A stretch of DNA of 64,000 bases, from NCBI GenBank assembly GCA_031416075.1, contig JANOSY010000092.1, positions 1 through 64,000 of the forward strand, written 5' to 3'. The DNA comes from Candidatus Tenderia sp. (GTDB lineage: Bacteria > Pseudomonadota > Gammaproteobacteria > Tenderiales > Tenderiaceae). Shown piece by piece: positions 31,146-40,663 of this stretch. A program made the translations under genes and the position numbers. How positions within the stretch are numbered: position 1 is the stretch's first letter; each line of letters begins with the position of its first letter. Under the pieces are notes generated by a model. That model was given only the letters and a program-made list of their open reading frames with translations, had not been told where the DNA came from and made no database searches.

Positions 31146-32462
31146 TCAGATCAGACGCATCTTTCCTGGCTTCATACAACGTTCAAACGCCTGAGCTACG
31201 CTTTCAACTTCGGACACTGAGATGTCAGCGATGCCGATTCGTATCCCGGGGGAGCTACGAATACGGAACACCTCACCTGCCTGAACCGCCCACCCTTGCG
31301 CAAGCATGCCCTGTACAACCTCGCTCTCACGCTGAACCGGGACCCAGACATGAAGACCAGAAGCACCTTGTGAGTCTATGCCCCGTTTCGCTAACGCCGC
31401 GCAAAGCGCAATCCGTCGCACCGAGTAAGCTGCCGCTGCGTCAGCTATCAGTTTACCTGTGCCCGCATCCGACCATACCCTCCACACAAGTGTCTGGAGT
31501 ATATGGCTCACCCAGCGAGGCCCTAACATTTGCAGACCCGATATTCGCGCTATTGTTGTCTCGTCGCCAGCTAACACCGAGAGCCGCAGATCTGGACCTA
31601 AAAATTTTGATACTGAACGTATGACCAGCCATGGGCGTGACACAATCGAGGGAGCAGCGGAGAAGCACTCACTCCCTGAAATGGAACTCGCGTGATCATC
31701 TTCAATGAGCAATACCTGCGGGTGGCGATCCAGGATGCGGCGTATGTCCTTCGCCCGCTCACCAGTAAAACATGCACCCGTTGGATTCTGTGCTCGGGGG
31801 GTTAAAACCACGGCTTTTGCCCCAGCTTCAATTGCAGCTTCAACAGCACTCGGCTCGGCTCCCAACCGATCAAGACTCATGGGTACCGGCCTGAATCCTA
31901 GTGCACGCACGAGATGCAGAGCTGACACGAAGCAAGGGTCTTCCATTGCCACCAGATCTCCTGGGCGCAGACGAGAACGCAATGCGCGTTCCAGCGCGTC
32001 CATTGCTCCCGAGGTGACGGCTAACGATTTGGCAGCAATGCCATCAGCCTCAAATACCCCTTTTACCAAAGCCAAAAGCCGCCCATCGTTCTCCGCCAAC
32101 TCATACCCGGACGGAGGCATGTCTAGTTTGACCAGAAATGGCCTCAAATCGGGTAACAGCCTAGAATCTACATTGCCCGAAGCCAAATCGCGCGCGCTAG
32201 CCTGAAGTGGTGCTCTGTAGGCATCGATAAATGGAGCGCCGACTACGCGCGACCCCTGCCTGCCTGAGCCGACGATTAGACCAGCGTCTCGAAGCTTGGC
32301 ATAAGCAGCAGCGACCGTATTTCGATTAACGCCTAGCTGTTCAGCAAGCTCACGAACCGACGGGAGTTGCTGGTCACGCTTTACCTCCCCATCTTGGATA
32401 GCCGCCTCAATATCTCGAAATATTTTGGCAGCTGAGCGCCCACCAATAGTTAGTTTATTCAT
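31146..32462 (-). CDS. MocR/GntR-family PLP-dependent regulator (PtsJ/DnfR-like)
   Basis: wHTH LPSVRELAEQLGVNRNTVAAAY plus an aminotransferase-like domain (PRAQNPTG, IEDDH, RSVSKFLGPDLR). Confidence 0.92.
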   Translation of the reverse strand: MNKLTIGGRSAAKIFRDIEAAIQDGEVKRDQQLPSVRELAEQLGVNRNTVAAAYAKLRDAGLIVGSGRQGSRVVGAPFIDAYRAPLQASARDLASGNVDSRLLPDLRPFLVKLDMPPSGYELAENDGRLLALVKGVFEADGIAAKSLAVTSGAMDALERALRSRLRPGDLVAMEDPCFVSALHLVRALGFRPVPMSLDRLGAEPSAVEAAIEAGAKAVVLTPRAQNPTGACFTGERAKDIRRILDRHPQVLLIEDDHASSISGSECFSAAPSIVSRPWLVIRSVSKFLGPDLRLSVLAGDETTIARISGLQMLGPRWVSHILQTLVWRVWSDAGTGKLIADAAAAYSVRRIALCAALAKRGIDSQGASGLHVWVPVQRESEVVQGMLAQGWAVQAGEVFRIRSSPGIRIGIADISVSEVESVAQAFERCMKPGKMRLI

Positions 32463-32744
32463 AACAATTATTCAATGTCCTAGAAGAATAACCTCAATAG
32501 GATAGGCTGATATCTTCATCTAGCCCAGAAAGAGCCAACATTATACATTTTAAACCTTGATAGGGCTGCGGTTACTGCTGCCACAACACAAGATTAAGAA
32601 CCAACCCCCTGCAGCACAAAATTAATATACATAAAATCAATAGCATATAGTATATCCAAGCATAAAATATGAAATAACCTACAACTACTCAGCATAATAA
32701 AAAGAAATAAAAAGGCCCTACACCCCTGTCGTGAAGAAAACCTA

Positions 32745-32810
32745 TTGACAACAAAAATGATGCAAACATAAGATTAATTCATGACATAAAAATATATGTC
32801 ATGTGACATT
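32745..32810 (+). promoter_or_regulatory. Sigma-70 promoter with adjacent putative MocR operator
   Basis: TTGACA (32745)-18 bp-TAAGAT. A perfect inverted repeat CATGACATA-N6-TATGTCATG (32780-32803) follows, plus a third TGACAT half-site. Confidence 0.7.
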
Positions 32811-32908
32811 AAAATAGTCTATAGTGATCATGTATTGGTAGCGCAGCTAATACTGGTACCCTCAGCTAAAGGATCAGTAGCGTAGGTGAATGCGCATGGA
32901 GCTAGGCG

Positions 32909-33601
32909 ATGAAAATTAATACAGAACTGCTTTACCTGCTCAGGGGAAAGGCTACAAAAATTGACTCGGCCGGGACTTTAAGCGGGATAAAAAAATCACC
33001 CGTTAAAGAGCCCCTGGCTCTCAACCAGTTCGGCCTAGAGGGCGATGAGCAAGCAGACCATCGACATCACGGCGGTCCTGATAAGGCCATTCACCACTAC
33101 GCTCTTGAGCACTATCGCTTTTGGGAAAACTCTCTTTCCGCAGGCTCACCTGCACTTAAGCTACCCGGCGCTTTTGGCGAAAATTTCTCCACACTCAATA
33201 TGACAGAGGCGACGGTCTGTATCGGGGATGTACTGTCGGTCGGAACTGCAGTGGTTGAAGTTTCGCAAGCGAGGCAACCCTGCTGGAAACTCAACCAACA
33301 CTTCCAGTGCCGTGACATGGCACAGCAGGTTCAATCGAGTGGTTACACAGGCTGGTACTACCGAGTGCTACAGCCGGGGGAAGTTTGTCCTGGCAACCAG
33401 CTGACTCTTCTTCAGCGCCCAAACCCCCATTGGACTTTATCGCGCCTGCTAAAGACCCTCTATGTTGACGCTCTTAATTTTGCAGAACTAGAGCAAATCG
33501 CACAACTGCAAGCACTTCCACTGCGGTGGCGCCAATTGGCAGAGAAACGGCTCGCATCTGGGAAAATAGAGGACTGGAGCGCAAGAATCAGCGGCACCTA
33601 A
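32909..33601 (+). CDS. yiiM: MOSC-domain protein, YiiM-like
   Basis: GDEQAD..HGGPDKA, GAFGEN, SQARQPCWKL, GWYYRVL and a C-terminal 3-alpha domain. Confidence 0.88.
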   Translation: MKINTELLYLLRGKATKIDSAGTLSGIKKSPVKEPLALNQFGLEGDEQADHRHHGGPDKAIHHYALEHYRFWENSLSAGSPALKLPGAFGENFSTLNMTEATVCIGDVLSVGTAVVEVSQARQPCWKLNQHFQCRDMAQQVQSSGYTGWYYRVLQPGEVCPGNQLTLLQRPNPHWTLSRLLKTLYVDALNFAELEQIAQLQALPLRWRQLAEKRLASGKIEDWSARISGT

Positions 33602-33672
33602 CTAAAAACAGGTGCTTCACACATGGGAACATATCTGTCACTCATCAAGACCCCCAATCTTAGGACTTAAAA

Positions 33673-34968
33673 ATGCTAAATCAGGACAATCTTTTAAAGT
33701 CTGACCCTTCTGTCGCAGCAGCTCTCAACGGAGAGAAGCGACGCCAAAGCGATTCCATAGAGCTGATCGCATCTGAAAACTTTGTATCAGCAGCAGTGCT
33801 GGAAGCACAAGGCAGCGTGCTGACCAATAAATATGCCGAGGGGTATCCTCAGCGCCGCTATTACGGTGGCTGCAAGTTTGCAGATGTAGTAGAACAACTA
33901 GCGATTGATCGTGCTTGCGCACTTTTCGACTCGCCTTACGCAAATGTACAGCCGCATTCAGGCTCGCAAGCGAATCAATCGGTCTTCCTCGCACTGTTGC
34001 AACCAGGGGATTTAATCATGGGCATGGACCTGTCTGCAGGTGGACACCTAACCCATGGTTCTAGCGTCAACATTTCAGGGAGATGGTTTAAGCAGGTAGC
34101 CTATACCGTCAGACCAGATGACGGAATCATTGATCTCGATCAGGTTTCTGCGCTCGCTCAGCAGTATCGCCCAAAACTCATCATTGCTGGTGGCTCTGCC
34201 TATTCCAGAATTATTGATTTCAAAGCATTCCGCAAGATTGCAGACAGCGTTGGCGCGTACCTCTTGGTTGACATGGCGCACTTTGCTGGACTTGTAGCCG
34301 CCAGACAGTATCCAAATCCCGTTCATCATGCACACGTAGTCACCACAACCACACATAAAACCCTTCGGGGACCTAGAGGTGGCTGCATCTTTACCAACGA
34401 TTCGAAAATCGCCACCCTCATTGACAAGGCCGTATTTCCAGGGCTTCAAGGTGGGCCGCTCATGCACGTGATAGCAGCTAAAGCAGTAGCCTTTGGGGAA
34501 GCGCTGCAACCGTCATTTCAGCAGTACATTCATAACGTCATAAAAAATGCGCAAGTGCTATCCGAGACACTTTTAAACGGCGGATTGAATATAGTATCTG
34601 GCGGAACAGACACTCACCTTCTTCTCGTCGACCTTCGACCTTTAAAGTTAACCGGAAACGTCGCAGAGACGACTCTGGAAGAGGTCGGTATCACTTGCAA
34701 CAAAAATAGTATTCCATTCGACTCCGAGAAGCCCGCATTGACTTCAGGCATCAGATTGGGGGCCGCAGCATGCACTACCAGAGGATTTGGTGCGGAAGAG
34801 TTTCGAGACATCGGGAAATGGATCCTGCGCATCCTACACTCACCATCTGACGCACAATCCGATCGTGCGTTAGTTAGTTCAGAGATAAAAACTGAAGTGC
34901 AAAATCTTTGCACACGAATCCCCCTATACCCAAAGTCTCTATCCAGTGACCGCTGGACATGCAAATGA
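33673..34968 (+). CDS. glyA: Serine hydroxymethyltransferase (accessory copy)
   Basis: ELIASEN, NVQPHSG, GGHLTHG and [14 protein letters not shown]. Confidence 0.95.
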
Positions 34969-36143
34969 ACATATTATCTGACGCCTTGATGGAGATCACA
35001 TCACGGCCGGACATTATTTTTGTTGAGGGCAAGGGTTCCTGGCTCACAGATACTAACGGAGCCAAGTACCTCGATTTCTCGCAAGGGTGGGCAGTCAACT
35101 CCCTAGGCCACAGTCATGATGAAATTGTGCGAGCGCTGTCTGACCAAGCCGCACGCGTTATAAATACAGGCCCCGCATTCTACAACGCACCTATGCTAGA
35201 GCTTGCAACACTCATTACAAAACACAGTTGCTTCGACGAGGTGTTTTTCGCTAATTCAGGAGCGGAAGCGAATGAGGGGGCAATAAAGCTCGCTCGAAAA
35301 TGGGGCGCAAAGCACAAGCATGGCGCACACGAGATTATAACCATGCATAACGGTTTTCACGGGCGAACGCTTGCAACTATGTCAGCTTCTGGCAAGCCCA
35401 ACTGGGAAACACTATATGAGCCCAAGGTTCCTGGATTCCCTAAAGTTCCTATAAACGATTTATCGGCGGTCGAGTCGCTAATTACTGATCGCACCGTGGC
35501 CGTAATGCTAGAGCCAATACAGGGCGAGGCGGGAGTGATTCTGGCTGAAAAAGAATACCTGCAAGGTCTTCGAAGACTCACCGAAGACAAAGAAATTTTA
35601 CTGATAGTTGATGAGGTTCAGTCTGGAGCAGGCCGTACAGGAGACCTCTTCTCATATGAATTTTATGGGATCGAACCCGACATTATGACGCTGGGCAAGG
35701 GGCTGGGTAGCGGCGTTCCTATATCAGCCTTGTGCGCAAAACGTCGCTTCTGCACTTTTGAATATGGAGATCAAGGAGGGACCTATAACGGTAATCCACT
35801 TGTCTCAGCAGCTGCGTGCGCAGTGCTTCGCGTGCTACTTAAACCGGGTTTTCTTCAGGGTGTTCGTGATGCTGGAAATTACCTTCAACATAAACTCAGT
35901 CAACTAATACGCACATTCGGGGCTGGCCACACAAGAGGCCGAGGTTTATTGGTTGCACTTATTTTAGATGAGCCAGTGGCACAGATAATAGTGGAGCAGT
36001 GCCTGAAAAATGGCTTAATTCTAAACGCACCTAAACCCAATATCATTAGGTTCACCCCATCTTTAATTACCGATAAAAAAGAGATAGATCAGATGGCAGA
36101 TATTTTAGAAGGGGTTATGAAAACGACGCTTAACTCGCAGTGA
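34959..36143 (+). CDS. Class III aminotransferase, acetylornithine aminotransferase-like
   Basis: [28 protein letters not shown] and LGKGLG. Confidence 0.9.
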
Positions 36144-36312
36144 GATTGAGAGCAGTACAGAGAATCAAGAACTGGATATATATTATCCCCAGCCCTAAAT
36201 AGGCACCATGTTGGCGACATGGACTATTTTGGGGGTAGGGTTTATATGATGCTCAAGCCCAGTGTTTGGGAGTCAACAACGCAAGTGGTAATTCAATCAA
36301 ATGGAGTAAACC

Positions 36313-37272
36313 ATGAATACAGCAACCGTTAGCGAAATTGAAACCAACGATTCAAAATGCAGAACTTTACTTGGACGGATAGCCGACACGTGGGGGACAA
36401 GAGCTCAAGTACGACGGCCGGAATTAATAATGGACTTTAACCCTTCTATCCCGGACTTTCTAGAAAATCTTCTGCCATTCCACAAACACCCCAATTACAC
36501 AAGGCTGGACGATAGACAAAAAAGTAAAATCCTCTCCTGTGGCTGGCTCGCTTATAACGAAAAAACCGTGGCTATAGAAACAGCAATCGTTACCCCATCC
36601 TGCCTGGACATACTCGAAGGACGGATACCTGGACTGAAGGATGAAGTGACGACGAAAATTGTTTGTGAAACACTAGTGGATGAAGCCTATCATCTCCTTC
36701 TGGTCAAGAACGCAAATGAAGTTTGTCGCTCACGCAGAGGACTTGAGTCAATTAACATACCCAAGTTTAACCTCGTAAAATACATGGAGAAGGAAAAATC
36801 TCTACACTCAGAACCATGGAAGAAGATTCTTATTCAGCTTGCCACTACGGTGGTATCCGAAATATTTGTCAGCGATTATCTTAATCTACTTTCGGATAGC
36901 CAGGAAATTCAGCCATTTAATCGGTTAACGGTTTCTGCCCATCGTCATGATGAACTGACACATAGCAAGATATTTAAAAGTTTCACGCAACAATTCTTCC
37001 CTGCATTTAATCCGGAGCAGAAGGCATTCTTCGCACAAATCCTGCCAAAACCCGTGCTTTGGTTTGCTGATCTAGAACTCGACTTGTGGCACGACCTGCT
37101 ATCCCAACTAAAAATAAAGGATGCAACGACGATCATCGAGGACTCTCGTGAACTCAATCGGGCAGCCCACAAGAGGGTCAATTACACGGAGGTAGTTGCT
37201 CTGGCCGAAGAGATAGGCATGTGTGAAAAACATGATAGCCGATTCATGTTCCCAGAGATCGAACTTCATTAA
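36313..37272 (+). CDS. AurF/CmlI/DnfA-family diiron N-oxygenase
   Basis: W..RA.V, LLPF..HP, W.AYNEKTV.IE, the two ExxH motifs DEAYH and DELTH, SE..V.DYL and IQP. Confidence 0.88.
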   Translation: MNTATVSEIETNDSKCRTLLGRIADTWGTRAQVRRPELIMDFNPSIPDFLENLLPFHKHPNYTRLDDRQKSKILSCGWLAYNEKTVAIETAIVTPSCLDILEGRIPGLKDEVTTKIVCETLVDEAYHLLLVKNANEVCRSRRGLESINIPKFNLVKYMEKEKSLHSEPWKKILIQLATTVVSEIFVSDYLNLLSDSQEIQPFNRLTVSAHRHDELTHSKIFKSFTQQFFPAFNPEQKAFFAQILPKPVLWFADLELDLWHDLLSQLKIKDATTIIEDSRELNRAAHKRVNYTEVVALAEEIGMCEKHDSRFMFPEIELH

Positions 37273-37286
37273 CCAGGAGAATTACC

Positions 37287-38021
37287 ATGAAAGCAGTTGT
37301 TATTCGACATGTAGCATTCGAGTCGCTCGGCAACATTGAGCAGCATTTGATTAACCGCAACTTCGATATCGAGATAATGAATGCGGCGCAGAACAAAGTA
37401 ACCCGTCTTCTCGGCAATCAACCAGATCTATTGATTATTCTTGGTGGACCTATCTCCGTCAACGACATCGAAGATTACCCATTTATCGCAGATGAGATTG
37501 AAGTGCTTAGGCAACGACTCACTCTCGGCCTTCCAACACTAGGCATCTGCCTGGGAGGCCAGTTGATTGCAAAGGCACTGGGGGCAAGTGTGTACCCGAA
37601 CAACAGCAAGGAGATTGGTTGGGGGCCCCTTACAACGATTAAGAATGTTGACTATTGCCCCGCCATAAGACACTTGTCAGCTGATAATACTAATGTTTTG
37701 CATTGGCACGGTGAAACATTCGACATACCCGCCGGGGCAATTCATTTGGCGTCGACAACCAAATGCAAAAACCAAGCTTTTGTATTCCGAGGGAACACCT
37801 TGGCCCTCCAGTTCCACCCTGAAGCGACGGCATCAGACTTGGAGGATTGGTTTGTCGGACACACCGCTGAAATCGCGTCTACAGACGGTCTATCAGTGAC
37901 ACAACTTAGACGAGAGACTCGTGAAAATGCAGACACACTGAACGAAGCAGCACAGAGCTTCTGGTCAGAGTGGTTCGATTCAATTACGAGTAGTCAGAAA
38001 GCCCAAGTTGCTTACACGTAA
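37287..38021 (+). CDS. Class I glutamine amidotransferase-like protein (DnfC-like)
   Basis: RHVAFE.LG, LGGPIS, GICLG (catalytic Cys), HWHGETF and QFHPE (His-Glu). Confidence 0.9.
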   Translation: MKAVVIRHVAFESLGNIEQHLINRNFDIEIMNAAQNKVTRLLGNQPDLLIILGGPISVNDIEDYPFIADEIEVLRQRLTLGLPTLGICLGGQLIAKALGASVYPNNSKEIGWGPLTTIKNVDYCPAIRHLSADNTNVLHWHGETFDIPAGAIHLASTTKCKNQAFVFRGNTLALQFHPEATASDLEDWFVGHTAEIASTDGLSVTQLRRETRENADTLNEAAQSFWSEWFDSITSSQKAQVAYT

Positions 38022-38122
38022 AGAGAATTAGCCAACATGAAGCTTAGATGACCAAGAAACCTCCAGCTAAATGTATCCGTTTGGCTGGAGGAACAATAAC
38101 CACCTACCTCGAGGACAAAACA

Positions 38123-38320
38123 ATGAAAATGAACAACCATAAAGTATGGCAATGCATTCTCTGTGACTTCCTCTACGACGAATATCTAGGGCTGCCGGAG
38201 CATGGCATAGCACCCGGCACCCGCTGGCAAGACGTACCTGATGACTGGGAGTGCCCCGACTGCGGGGTCGGGAAAGCCGACTTCGAAATGCAGGAGCTAC
38301 AAACAGCGATAACCGCTTAG
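38123..38320 (+). CDS. Rubredoxin
   Basis: WQCILCDFLYDE.LG.PEHGIAPGTRWQDVPDDWECPDCG. SD GAGGA precedes ATG 38123. Confidence 0.93.
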   Translation: MKMNNHKVWQCILCDFLYDEYLGLPEHGIAPGTRWQDVPDDWECPDCGVGKADFEMQELQTAITA

Positions 38321-38372
38321 CCGTATAGGTGGATCAATTCAGCTACGCAACAAATTTGAAGGAGTCTTATTG

Positions 38373-39608
38373 ATGAACGAACCAATAGTAATCATCGGCG
38401 CGGGTCAAGCGGGTGCAGAGCTTGCCCTGGCGCTGCGTCGAGGTGGGTGCACTCAGCGTATTGTAATGAAAGGAGACGAACCTTACTTACCTTACCGCCG
38501 CCCCGCTCTTTCCAAAGGATTTCTATCAGGAAAGGTGCCTGAAAGTACCCTTTACCACACCACGGCTGAGCGGCTTGCCGATAACCACATAGAGTTCATG
38601 CCAGGCTCACGGATAGCCCACGTCGACCCGGCTCGTAAACTGATCACATCCGCTGACCAAAAAGTCCTTAGGTACAGCAAACTGGCATTTGCAACGGGCG
38701 GTAGCCCCAGAAAAATAAAATGTCCTGGGGCTGATTTATCGAACATCAACTACCTTCGGACAATCGATGACGCACGTATACTCAGAAAGACACTCACCAG
38801 CGGGACAAAGCTCGTGGTCATTGGGGGCGGATACGTTGGCCTTGAAATCGCAGCAACCGCTAAAGAACAGGGCGCAGACATAACGGTACTGGAAGCTGGC
38901 CCACGGGTCTTACGTCGCAGCACCTGCGCAGAGATTGCTGCATTTATCAGCGAGCAGCATCGATCTGCTGGAGTGAAGATAGCTGTCAATAAGCAGGTGC
39001 GAGCCTTTCACTCTTTAGGCACCAAGGCAGTCACAGCGGTTGAATGTGTCGATGGAACTGTTTACCCCGCGGATCTAGTGGTCGTTGGAATTGGACTCAT
39101 TGCCAATGATGAACTTGCGGCGTCAGCTGGCCTCAATGTCGACCGAGGAATCACCGTGGATGAGCTGGGCCAGACGTCTGATCCGGATATTGTCGCCGTA
39201 GGTGATTGCGCAAACAGTATGAACACGTTTTGCGGATATCGTTTGAGACTAGAGTCAGTTCAAGGTGCCATGGAACAAGCGCGAGTGGCGGCAATGACTA
39301 TGCTAGGTAAAGGTATCGCGGCCCGCTCGATCCCGACGTTCTGGTCAGATCAGTATAATTTGAAACTGCAAATGATCGGGGTACCCACCGATGCCGATCA
39401 AATCATTACACGGAGCTATCCTAACAGAGAGTCTTTTGCGGCATTTTATGTTAGAAATGGCATATTGAAAGCAGCACATTTTATCAATGGCTCGTCAGAT
39501 ATCATGGCCGCTCGTAGGCTGATCATGGAAGAGATCCCTGTTTCTAATAAAAATTTGATCAACCCCTCAATGTCCCTGAACTCACTGCTTACAGAAACCG
39601 CAGCCTAA
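38373..39608 (+). CDS. FAD-dependent ferredoxin/rubredoxin-NAD(H) reductase
   Basis: IGAGQAG, PYRRPALSKGFL, IGGGYVGLE, RLESVQGA and FWSDQY. Confidence 0.9.
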   Translation: MNEPIVIIGAGQAGAELALALRRGGCTQRIVMKGDEPYLPYRRPALSKGFLSGKVPESTLYHTTAERLADNHIEFMPGSRIAHVDPARKLITSADQKVLRYSKLAFATGGSPRKIKCPGADLSNINYLRTIDDARILRKTLTSGTKLVVIGGGYVGLEIAATAKEQGADITVLEAGPRVLRRSTCAEIAAFISEQHRSAGVKIAVNKQVRAFHSLGTKAVTAVECVDGTVYPADLVVVGIGLIANDELAASAGLNVDRGITVDELGQTSDPDIVAVGDCANSMNTFCGYRLRLESVQGAMEQARVAAMTMLGKGIAARSIPTFWSDQYNLKLQMIGVPTDADQIITRSYPNRESFAAFYVRNGILKAAHFINGSSDIMAARRLIMEEIPVSNKNLINPSMSLNSLLTETAA

Positions 39609-39936: not shown

Positions 39937-40272
39937 TTAAGAGCTTCCTATCTCCACATCTAATGTTTTGATCTGATCAATAATACAAATTAACTTTTCA
40001 CCATTTTCCGTGAGCGAATATTCTGTTCTTGGCGGAACCTCAGCATAAGTAAACTTTTTCAATAATTTATAGTCAGTTAGTTTACGCAGCCTCTCAGATA
40101 AAACCTTTTTTGAAATCCCCTCTATATATCGCTCCATTTTTCCCGGCCGAGTGATGTTGTCTGCGACCGCCTTCAATACAGACACTGACCACTTACAGCC
40201 TACCACCTCTTCAAGCTGATTGTAGGTTAGCTGCTTTGATTTTCGTGCATTTATTTTTTTCTTTATTATCAT
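39937..40272 (-). CDS. HxlR/DUF24-family transcriptional regulator
   Basis: GCKWS, GISKKVLSERLR and EVPPRTEYSLTENG. Confidence 0.88.
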   Translation of the reverse strand: MIIKKKINARKSKQLTYNQLEEVVGCKWSVSVLKAVADNITRPGKMERYIEGISKKVLSERLRKLTDYKLLKKFTYAEVPPRTEYSLTENGEKLICIIDQIKTLDVEIGSS

Positions 40273-40400
40273 AATTTTACACCAGTAAGTCCCTATGGAA
40301 CCAAAAAGTACCTACTTATAGGAAGGCAAAAAAATATCTACAATTTTGTAGTGCCAGTTACATCGGCACTTATAACTTAAATTAATTTTGGAGAAAAGCA

Positions 40401-40637
40401 ATGATAACTAAAGCATTTTTTTACCATGCTGGCTGTCCTGTATGTGTGGCAGCAGAGAGAAATGTAGCAAATTCTCTTGACCCTAAGAAATGTCATGTTG
40501 AAATTGTGCATTTAGGTGAAAATAAATCTCGCATACGGGATGCTGAAGCAGCGGGAATTAAGTCTGTACCGGCCCTCGTATTGGATGGTGCTGTATTCCA
40601 TATAAATTTTGGTGCGGATATAGGCGCACTAAAATAG
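40401..40637 (+). CDS. Small thioredoxin/glutaredoxin-like protein
   Basis: FYHAGCPVC motif and SVPALV cis-Pro loop. Confidence 0.85.
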   Translation: MITKAFFYHAGCPVCVAAERNVANSLDPKKCHVEIVHLGENKSRIRDAEAAGIKSVPALVLDGAVFHINFGADIGALK

Positions 40638-40663
40638 CGTATTCATAGCTTCATTTTATTTTC

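Follow-up and report, generated by a model that had tools for sequence, protein, structure and literature searches.

We describe a gene cluster of a Candidatus Tenderia sp. (positions 31146 to 39608 of a 64,000-nucleotide stretch of contig JANOSY010000092.1, the whole of which is called the window here) in which the gene for an AurF-family diiron oxygenase is followed by those for a class I glutamine amidotransferase (GATase), a rubredoxin and an FAD-dependent reductase. Glutamine-dependent hydroxylamine formation is the most likely function of this cluster, a reading that we hold with moderate confidence. To our knowledge, the formation of hydroxylamine by DnfABC is the only known enzymatic heterotrophic ammonia oxidation that passes through glutamine. 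Two of the three core components are dnf-like, as are the accessory genes, but the oxygenase is not a DnfA orthologue and the reductase is not a DnfB. The open reading frames (ORFs) of the window were scored against Pfam and NCBIfam, with coverage of the 14 ORFs between 26.9 and 43.9 kb, and the eight genes that a first-pass annotation, made by a model from the letters of the sequence, had named are each supported by these profiles:

31146-32462, minus strand: MocR-type regulator (Pfam GntR, 52.7 bits, and Aminotran_1_2, 71.8 bits)
32463-32908, no strand: control region between the divergent MocR and yiiM genes, AT-rich (GC 0.361)
32909-33601, plus strand: YiiM-type MOSC protein (MOSC, 120.8 bits, and YiiM_3-alpha)
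33673-34968, plus strand: serine hydroxymethyltransferase, SHMT (PF00464, 547 bits)
34959-36143, plus strand: class III (ArgD-like) aminotransferase (PF00202, 348.5 bits; NF002985 acetylornithine transaminase, 606.5 bits, cutoff 568)
36313-37272, plus strand: AurF-family diiron oxygenase (PF11583, 158 bits)
37287-38021, plus strand: class I GATase (PF00117, 82.6 bits; NF005458, 282.8 bits, cutoff 250)
38048-38320, plus strand: rubredoxin (PF00301, 71.3 bits)
38370-39608, plus strand: FAD/NAD(P)H reductase of the ferredoxin/rubredoxin type (Pyr_redox_2, 217.9 bits, and Reductase_C, 89.1 bits)

The aminotransferase gene overlaps the SHMT gene by 10 bp and is separated by a 169-bp gap from the oxygenase gene; the GATase gene begins 14 bp past the oxygenase gene, and the rubredoxin and reductase genes lie 26 bp and 49 bp, respectively, past the gene that precedes each.

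The dnfT1RT2ABCD ("dirammox") cluster codes for a transaminase, the MocR-like pyridoxal phosphate (PLP) protein DnfR, an SHMT, the diiron oxygenase DnfA, DnfB and the GATase DnfC (PMC9136411). In vitro, DnfAB is reported to hydroxylate the amide of glutamine and DnfC to hydrolyse the resulting hydroxamate (cited in PMC11160463 and PMC13753816). In a recent survey (mBio, October 2026; PMC13753816), complete dnfABC clusters were found in 690 genomes from 26 genera. They fall into five groups, their DnfB is most like the reductase of toluenesulfonate monooxygenase (TsaB-like), and mosC, bioA and yggS are frequent neighbours. When expressed in E. coli, seven dnf clusters formed hydroxylamine out of ammonium or glutamine, among them that of Shewanella sp. 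AS16 (group IV), the DnfA of which is 37% identical to that of Alcaligenes (PMC13753816).

Like the canonical dnf clusters of Alcaligenes, Delftia and Pseudomonas (groups I-II), the window cluster has an AurF-family oxygenase gene beside the gene for a DnfC-clade GATase, an SHMT of the DnfT2 clade, a regulator of the MocR type and an additional aminotransferase, and in both kinds of cluster PLP genes recur as neighbours. It differs from them in its oxygenase, which is 25-29% identical to canonical DnfA and belongs to another clade, in the replacement of DnfB by a rubredoxin and a Pyr_redox_2 reductase, in a class III aminotransferase as opposed to a SerC-like one, in the added MOSC protein and in the subtype of its MocR. 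The match to dnf proposed in the first-pass annotation thus holds for the overall parallel with dnfT1RT2ABC, for the GATase and for the SHMT, which groups with SHMTs encoded next to dnfA, and breaks down at the oxygenase, the reductase and the regulator. The group IV dnfA*BC clusters (Shewanella, Motilimonas, Colwellia) are likewise low-identity dnf variants with a MOSC neighbour; unlike the window cluster, however, they keep a DnfB-type reductase, their oxygenases, to which that of the window is 32-34% identical, group with canonical DnfA, and in Shewanella and Motilimonas DnfC is fused to a peroxiredoxin. The architecture of the window cluster is new relative to the published groups I-V, as had been claimed, but not unique, since related rubredoxin-type loci are found in several genomes.

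The oxygenase-GATase pair and its gene context

A protein search with the window oxygenase gave 263 matches; among the best 120 of these, the nearest oxygenases are metagenomic (74% and 67% identity), and the named matches, from Tistrella mobilis, Aureimonas, Sphingobium sp. CFD-1 and Aquabacterium soli, are 54-60% identical. Two loci were retrieved with the single protein as query and 66 loci in named genomes with an alignment as query, while a tblastn search of plasmids returned 13 records, which gave an arylamine-type reference locus from B. glumae and the Tistrella locus and included no canonical dnf cluster. Searches with the window protein did not reach canonical DnfA. This was reached through a family search in 401 genomes around A. 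soli, which led to Delftia tsuruhatensis, and the protein of this organism, used in turn as query, gave 20 loci, including those of Alcaligenes sp. WGS1538, Delftia, Pseudomonas and Xanthobacter. The order of the Delftia locus is SHMT, class III aminotransferase, YggS-like protein, BenE, MocR, SHMT, DnfA, DnfB (FAD_binding_6 plus Fer2) and DnfC.

Two trees were made of the oxygenases. Tree 1 has 52 rows, which represent about 90 non-duplicate oxygenases, and omits near-duplicates (mostly cyanobacterial and planctomycete rows) as well as 13 of the 20 canonical loci; tree 2 has the 41 rows that remain after removal of seven long-branch rows and four near-duplicates. The end branch of the outgroup L078 reached 10 in tree 1, and tree 2 was made without it for this reason; neither tree is reliably rooted. 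The other strong PF11583 matches of the family search around A. soli (G321 and G179) belong to a remote subfamily, barely visible to the profile, and were left out of both. The four clades, recovered in both trees, are given below with their support in tree 2 and with the number of loci of the corresponding group in which each neighbour was found (blastp against the ORFs of the locus, E<=1e-8, at least half of the query covered; HAO, hydroxylamine oxidoreductase; PdxK, pyridoxal kinase):

Clade A, canonical DnfA (100/100; 20 loci): GATase 19, DnfB 19, rubredoxin 0, reductase 0, MOSC 0, SHMT 16, class III aminotransferase 5, MocR 19, HAO 0, PdxK 4, YggS 8
Clade B, group IV (98/96; 6 loci): GATase 6, DnfB 6, MOSC 5; rubredoxin, reductase, SHMT, class III aminotransferase, MocR, HAO, PdxK and YggS all 0
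Clade C, arylamine type, including the B. glumae plasmid oxygenase (100/100; 4 loci): GATase, DnfB, rubredoxin, reductase, MOSC, SHMT, class III aminotransferase, MocR, HAO, PdxK and YggS all 0
Clade D, window oxygenase and relatives (81/68; 59 loci): GATase 40, DnfB 2, rubredoxin 11, reductase 11, MOSC 14, SHMT 5, class III aminotransferase 7, MocR 9, HAO 2, PdxK 1, YggS 1

The survey of cluster conservation that the first-pass annotation had called for thus finds a GATase in 40 of the 59 clade D loci, a rubredoxin in 11 and a MOSC protein in 14. The full gene set of the window recurs in a near-identical metagenome-assembled genome (MAG; L004), and an Ectothiorhodospiraceae MAG (L026) and Arhodomonas sp. 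AD133 (L048) encode the same eight functions but differ in gene order and in the GATase; most of the set is also found in the loci of Aureimonas pseudogalii and Tistrella. In L026 and L048, the rubredoxin is fused to the reductase and a gene for L-serine dehydratase lies downstream. A pyridoxal kinase gene (L007:12090-13061; TIGR00687, 230 bits, cutoff 144.5) is situated inside the cluster of Aureimonas pseudogalii, and in Scytonema a gene for RidA follows the oxygenase-GATase pair. Together with YggS, these neighbours indicate that a link to PLP homeostasis recurs. Clade D is common in cyanobacteria and Streptomyces; Streptomyces loci with the gene order oxygenase, Fer2 reductase, GATase fall inside it and adjoin the subclade of the window oxygenase at 99/93.

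The GATase is a stand-alone class I domain of 244 aa, the triad of which (C88/H177/E179) is invariant in nine aligned sequences. In a GATase tree of 44 rows, one of the checks proposed at the outset, it lies inside the DnfC clade: it branches off first in a clade of 35 rows (support 100/99), which takes in the DnfC proteins of Alcaligenes, Delftia and Pseudomonas, the remaining canonical and group IV DnfC rows and, apart from the GATases of L026 and L048, all the clade D partners included in the tree. It is 48-51% identical to group IV DnfC, closer than to canonical DnfC, and the NCBIfam TrpG/PabA models score at most 27 bits on it, far under their cutoffs. Two GATases are encoded in a Nitrosomonadales MAG (L018:9942-12872), one after the oxygenase and 47% identical to that of the window, the other after the rubredoxin reductase and 59% identical to Delftia DnfC. 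At a locus of G457 (L150:6457-9668), a genome that shares its class with that of the window, a MocR gene is followed by a 38-residue remnant 55% identical to Delftia DnfA and, after about 900 bp without a recognised gene, by a GATase gene the product of which is 63% identical to Delftia DnfC. This locus has the look of a canonical dnf cluster in decay; a different contig of G457 carries an AurF-family gene.

The DEAYH and DELTH motifs of the oxygenase, already noticed on first inspection, are real and stand on the invariant ligand columns E124/H127 and E214/H217. The seven ligand positions (E89, E124, H127, E183, H210, E214 and H217), which follow what we take to be the iron-ligand residues of AurF, are invariant in 21 close relatives and also in a 51-row alignment of all clades. 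The ligand E183 is flanked in the window oxygenase by S182 and D188, whereas AurF and CmlI, aligned with it, have Ala/Ala at these positions. The Ser/Asp pair is present in all 20 group A and all 6 group B oxygenases, in 39 of the 40 GATase-linked clade D oxygenases (the lone exception is a truncated ORF), in 6 of 20 clade D loci without a GATase and in none of the four of group C, which are Ala/Ala. As far as the alignments go, S182/D188 is the sole residue-level feature found that tracks GATase partnership over three deep clades. Columns 31, 49, 75 and 88 and the invariant K84, which set clade C apart, were dropped as markers; CmlI agrees with the window oxygenase at the four columns and differs from it at K84.

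In Halochromatium glycolicum DSM 11080 (L036:9001-15293) and a related MAG (L035), genes for the oxygenase, the GATase, a rubredoxin-reductase fusion, a nitrifier-type HAO and an HaoB-like protein follow one another on one strand. The HAO scores 589 bits to that of Nitrosomonas europaea and the HaoB-like protein 146 bits, under the cutoff of 200. With the HAO and HaoB-like genes directly downstream, the clade D module is here tied to hydroxylamine, and this gene order is the best contextual evidence for the formation of hydroxylamine by a clade D module. Upstream lie a gene for a protein like subunit I of heme-copper oxidases and genes for SCO1 and an MIP channel. Neither HAO nor a hybrid-cluster protein was found in the window genome, the HAO result being a weak negative because the search for it matched in none of the control genomes.

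The rubredoxin of the window has both Cys pairs (CxxC and CPxC); its true start may be an internal Met, at residue 26 or 28. The top NCBIfam models of the reductase are ferredoxin-NAD+ reductases, which it matches under their cutoffs, and it has a Reductase_C domain where the reductase of L018 has a C-terminal Rbx_binding domain instead. Rubredoxin genes occur in 11 of the 59 clade D loci versus none of the 26 canonical and group IV loci, and in 11 of the 59 a reductase homologue follows the rubredoxin; the two are fused in Arhodomonas and Halochromatium. DnfB homologues are found in 19 of the 20 canonical loci, all six of group IV and two of the 59 of clade D. By profile search, no DnfB-type reductase (FAD_binding_6 plus 2Fe-2S) is encoded among the 14 window ORFs, and in the window genome, which is 99.98% complete, no homologue of Delftia DnfB was found. 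Full-text searches of the literature turned up no rubredoxin-type dnf cluster among the papers listed ("rubredoxin" in PMC11160463 refers to an unrelated DUF35 protein), and the word is absent from the main text of PMC13753816. For the survey in the latter, DnfA, DnfB and DnfC all had to be encoded in the same neighbourhood, and MAGs were left out, so that the published dnfABC inventory would miss clusters of the rubredoxin type.

Proposed mechanism and competing explanations

On the reading that we prefer, the core of the cluster (36313-39608) would encode a four-protein module working like DnfABC. NAD(P)H would reduce the FAD reductase and the reductase in turn the rubredoxin, which would pass the electrons on to the diiron centre of the oxygenase and so take the place of the 2Fe-2S domain of DnfB. 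A chain of rubredoxin and rubredoxin reductase, AlkG and AlkT, feeds the diiron oxygenase AlkB; as in that system, a path from NAD(P)H through an FAD reductase to rubredoxin would be encoded beside a diiron oxygenase, but AlkB is a membrane enzyme, whereas that of the window is predicted to be a soluble four-helix bundle of the AurF type. With O2, the oxygenase would hydroxylate the amide nitrogen of L-glutamine to gamma-glutamyl hydroxamate, and the adjacent DnfC-type GATase would hydrolyse the latter to glutamate and free hydroxylamine. MocR may control the divergent operon, and YiiM may shield the cell by reducing N-hydroxylated by-products derived from hydroxylamine. The extra SHMT and class III aminotransferase would back up PLP enzymes poisoned by hydroxylamine or, alternatively, serve a further step shared with the canonical dnf clusters. 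Substrate, product, electron path and accessory roles are all inferred. No inference is drawn on the conversion of hydroxylamine to N2, which the first-pass annotation had named for the Alcaligenes cluster: N2 production cannot be deduced from the window cluster, and even in Alcaligenes it is a matter of dispute whether N2 is formed biotically (PMC13753816).

The recurrence of PLP enzymes and PLP-homeostasis genes beside these oxygenases deserves separate mention. Hydroxylamine reacts with PLP; because extra PLP genes recur and the regulator is PtsJ-like (see below), this reactivity suggests that part of the cluster may protect PLP metabolism from hydroxylamine.

Several points speak against assigning hydroxylamine formation to the cluster. 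In both oxygenase trees, taken as unrooted, the split (A,B)|(C,D) is supported at 100/99, so that the phylogeny does not put clade D with the assayed enzymes. In the oxygenase phylogeny that had been proposed as a check, the window protein belongs to a separate clade on the arylamine-type side of the tree, away from canonical DnfA and group IV, and it is through its partners that the cluster is tied to dnf. As the trees are unrooted, they fit two placements: either clade D is sister to the arylamine type, or the GATase-linked clades form one group, with clade C holding the root. Moreover, the support for clade D is modest (81/68), and an assayed member of the clade is lacking in the literature cited here. 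The partnership with the GATase is also less than uniform. No GATase was found in 19 of the 59 clade D loci, some of which are short contigs, and the GATases of L026 and L048, the loci with the fullest matching gene sets, fall outside the DnfC clade. In all four class relatives examined, a DnfC-clade GATase is encoded without an adjacent complete AurF-family gene (two of these genomes have no AurF match over the cutoff, and in one the GATase stands beside a 38-residue DnfA remnant), and membership of the DnfC clade is therefore no proof of partnership. The Ser/Asp pair may be just ancestral, the sequences that share it being related and so not independent. Finally, the dnf mechanism is itself disputed, with three competing models (PMC13753816).

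Of the other explanations considered, a route to a small metabolite fares best, although we regard it as unlikely. Here, the oxygenase would form gamma-glutamyl hydroxamate or another N-oxygenated amine, and the GATase would hand the NHOH group on to an acceptor that the SHMT and the aminotransferase had assembled, to give a hydroxamate, an N-hydroxy or a nitro compound in place of free hydroxylamine, much as TsnB6, TsnB7 and TsnB9 do in trichostatin and benzohydroxamate biosynthesis. The chemistry has precedent: in the TsnB6/TsnB7/TsnB9 and SaAmOx-AS/SaAmOx/SaHAT systems of Streptomyces, L-glutamine is converted to glutamyl hydroxamate, upon which an amidotransferase-type enzyme then acts (PMC13418202, PMC11160463), and a parallel of DnfAB/DnfC with TsnB7 and TsnB9 has been drawn (PMC11160463). 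A dedicated SHMT and aminotransferase conserved with the module, and the frequency of clade D in two groups with many natural products, cyanobacteria and Streptomyces, are consistent with such a route. In the Streptomyces systems, however, NHOH is moved to an acid acceptor by a hydroxyamidotransferase (PMC13418202, PMC11160463), whereas the GATase of the window is stand-alone and has no synthase partner. The profiles recognised no TsnB9-like hydroxyamidotransferase, TsnB6-like subunit or ligase among the 14 ORFs, the TsnB sequences not being among the queries, and no Asn-synthetase-like transferase, nonribosomal peptide synthetase (NRPS), polyketide synthase (PKS) or exporter is encoded there either. 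Furthermore, the neighbours of the cyanobacterial pairs (MutS, RidA, NUDIX and TPR proteins) form no biosynthetic cluster, and the links to HAO and MOSC proteins point to free hydroxylamine.

Less probable still is a MocR-controlled catabolic module for an amino or amide compound (compare gamma-aminobutyric acid, ectoine, rhizopine and taurine), with the aminotransferase and the SHMT acting on the carbon skeleton and the oxygenase and GATase stripping the nitrogen. Regulators of catabolic and B6-salvage pathways are among the NCBIfam matches of the MocR protein, an L-serine dehydratase gene follows the cluster in Arhodomonas, and the aminotransferases of different loci belong to different subfamilies (31-38% identity). 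Against this, the profiles found no transporter, dehydrogenase or hydrolase gene typical of catabolic operons in the segment, the core pair also occurs without the SHMT and aminotransferase genes (a GATase is present in 40 of the 59 clade D loci), and the links to MOSC proteins and HAO would be left unexplained.

The least probable explanation, and in our view a very improbable one, is an N-oxygenase of the AurF/CmlI type that acts on an arylamine or another amine, for which the GATase would make the amine substrate. AurF (3chh) and CmlI (5hyg) belong to the same Pfam family as the window oxygenase, which keeps all seven of the ligand positions and has CmlI (144 bits) and then AurF (105 bits) as its top PDB matches; moreover, the unrooted trees set clade D on the side of clade C, a member of which, on the B. 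glumae plasmid (L070), adjoins pabB, a component II gene and NRPS/PKS genes. AurF, CmlI and TsnB7 are not rows in the trees, and PDB bit scores were used as a stand-in for their placement: against CmlI and AurF, respectively, clade C scores 183 and 153 bits, the window oxygenase 144 and 105, a Streptomyces member of clade D 147 and 97, group B (group IV) 144 and 130, and group A (canonical) 116 and 93. Clade C thus being the top scorer, the solved arylamine enzymes are nearest to it and not to the window oxygenase. In keeping with the first-pass annotation, the profile search found no NRPS/PKS, aminodeoxychorismate (ADC) synthase or exporter gene among the 14 ORFs, and it also found no pabB or other chorismate-pathway gene there, so that genes for arylamine supply or an assembly line are missing. 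None of the four arylamine-type loci has a DnfC-type GATase, to which the window oxygenase is linked; this GATase is not of the TrpG/PabA type, and S182/D188 replace the Ala/Ala of AurF, CmlI and clade C.

A wider proposal may be put forward, if only tentatively. The clade D pairs would constitute a large, so far unrecognised family of glutamine-dependent hydroxylamine synthases in Proteobacteria, cyanobacteria and actinomycetes, which would take electrons from whatever carrier is available, here rubredoxin; in purple sulfur bacteria they would feed HAO, and the recurrent PLP genes (the dedicated SHMT lineage, aminotransferases, pyridoxal kinase and YggS) and the PtsJ-like MocR would serve self-resistance against the poisoning of PLP by hydroxylamine. 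If this were true, the pair upstream of HAO and the HaoB-like protein would amount to a route, independent of ammonia monooxygenase (AMO), from ammonium through glutamine and hydroxylamine to oxidised nitrogen; in the HAO-linked relatives, the glutamine route may be connected with classical hydroxylamine oxidation. Should clusters such as that of the window be active, the inventory in PMC13753816 undercounts the trait, and the taxa missed would include freshwater-sediment Gammaproteobacteria, Aquabacterium, Aureimonas, Tistrella, many cyanobacteria and purple sulfur bacteria. The electron supply by DnfB would then be replaceable, and two features, the Ser/Asp signature and the SHMT lineage dedicated to these clusters, would offer points at which the disputed dnf mechanism can be tested.

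Accessory proteins and the control region

The SHMT is an extra copy. A second SHMT is encoded on contig C24 of the window genome (586 bits), and a tree of 14 rows unites the window SHMT, at 99/98, with the SHMTs from the clusters of Aureimonas, Tistrella, Delftia and two Pseudomonas, the Delftia member being the copy that adjoins dnfA. The non-cluster SHMTs of the window genome (G000), a congener (G407), Delftia and Aureimonas lie outside this clade. The cluster aminotransferase, likewise an extra, has four class III paralogues elsewhere in the genome, which makes five in all. Among clade D loci, 7 of 59 encode a class III aminotransferase, and among canonical loci 5 of 20; these proteins are 31-38% identical to that of the window.

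The best NCBIfam model of the MocR protein is the B6-salvage regulator PtsJ (393 bits, under the cutoff of 573). The protein is 52-60% identical to the MocR proteins encoded beside the oxygenase in Aureimonas and Tistrella, and gave no blastp match to Delftia DnfR at E<=1e-8 over at least half of DnfR. In the MocR/yiiM region, a promoter-like site (TTGACA-18-TAAGAT) is found at 32745-32774. The promoter scan gave 13 promoter-like sites versus 12.6 expected from shuffles, and a site of this kind is therefore no evidence of function by itself; both the promoter and the terminator scans were at or under chance level. Just downstream of this site, the best in the region, are a perfect 9-bp inverted repeat (32780-32788/32795-32803, 6-bp spacer) and, overlapping it, a 13-nt direct repeat at 32782 and 32804, 22 bp apart. 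These repeats (32780-32816) are a candidate MocR operator.

The YiiM protein has both a MOSC domain and a YiiM 3-alpha domain, and MoaE, for the supply of molybdenum cofactor (Moco), is present in the window genome. It scores 173 bits with NF008577 (6-hydroxyaminopurine reductase), under the cutoff of 294, and so its equivalence to E. coli YiiM is not established. Hydroxylamine can enter purine synthesis wrongly and give rise to 6-hydroxylaminopurine (HAP), and in E. coli YiiM and YcbX detoxify both HAP and hydroxylamine (PMC3831636). A reductase of N-hydroxylated compounds that serves self-protection is thus the likely role of the window protein.

Acquisition of the cluster

Horizontal acquisition, also put forward in the first-pass annotation, is supported by the distribution of the oxygenase and by the flanks of the cluster. 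The oxygenase is present in 2 of the 61 genomes searched, the window genome included (one of the 61 is flagged as unpublished): it was found in one of four congeners and in none of 12 other genomes of the family. The flanks are syntenic in three congeners, with RimO and a methyltransferase on one side and a thioesterase and a glycosyltransferase on the other. Between these flanks, the window genome has 9.7 kb of DNA (segment 31034-40768) and the congeners carry different DNA: 6.2 kb in G405 (L134:2676-8852), 2.6 kb in G408 (L135:4666-7269) and 1.1 kb in G406 (L136:4002-5117). With varying DNA between conserved flanks, the segment is cargo in a variable spot; the site between the methyltransferase and thioesterase genes behaves as an integration hot spot, and these observations support a horizontally acquired islet.

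The GC content is 0.485 from yiiM to the reductase gene, 0.44 in the oxygenase gene and 0.551 in the MocR gene, as against 0.548 in the left 31 kb and 0.479 in the right 23 kb of the window. The segment had been described as more AT-rich than its flanks, which is correct with respect to the left flank but not the right one, nor for the MocR gene, and GC content was dropped as a weak sign of transfer. DNA of the segment was found in metagenomes from freshwater sediment, sediment and drinking water; at least half of the sampled words are present in each of five runs, one of which may be the source.

Two more genes, divergent from each other, lie inside the variable segment:

39937-40272, minus strand: HxlR-type regulator (PF01638, 69.4 bits)
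40402-40638, plus strand: small thioredoxin-like ORF of 78 codons (CPVC motif, read from the sequence)

Their membership in the cluster is uncertain, and they may be a separate cargo related to redox stress. The stretch that they occupy (39937-40638) is the most AT-rich part of the variable segment, with a GC content of 0.395.

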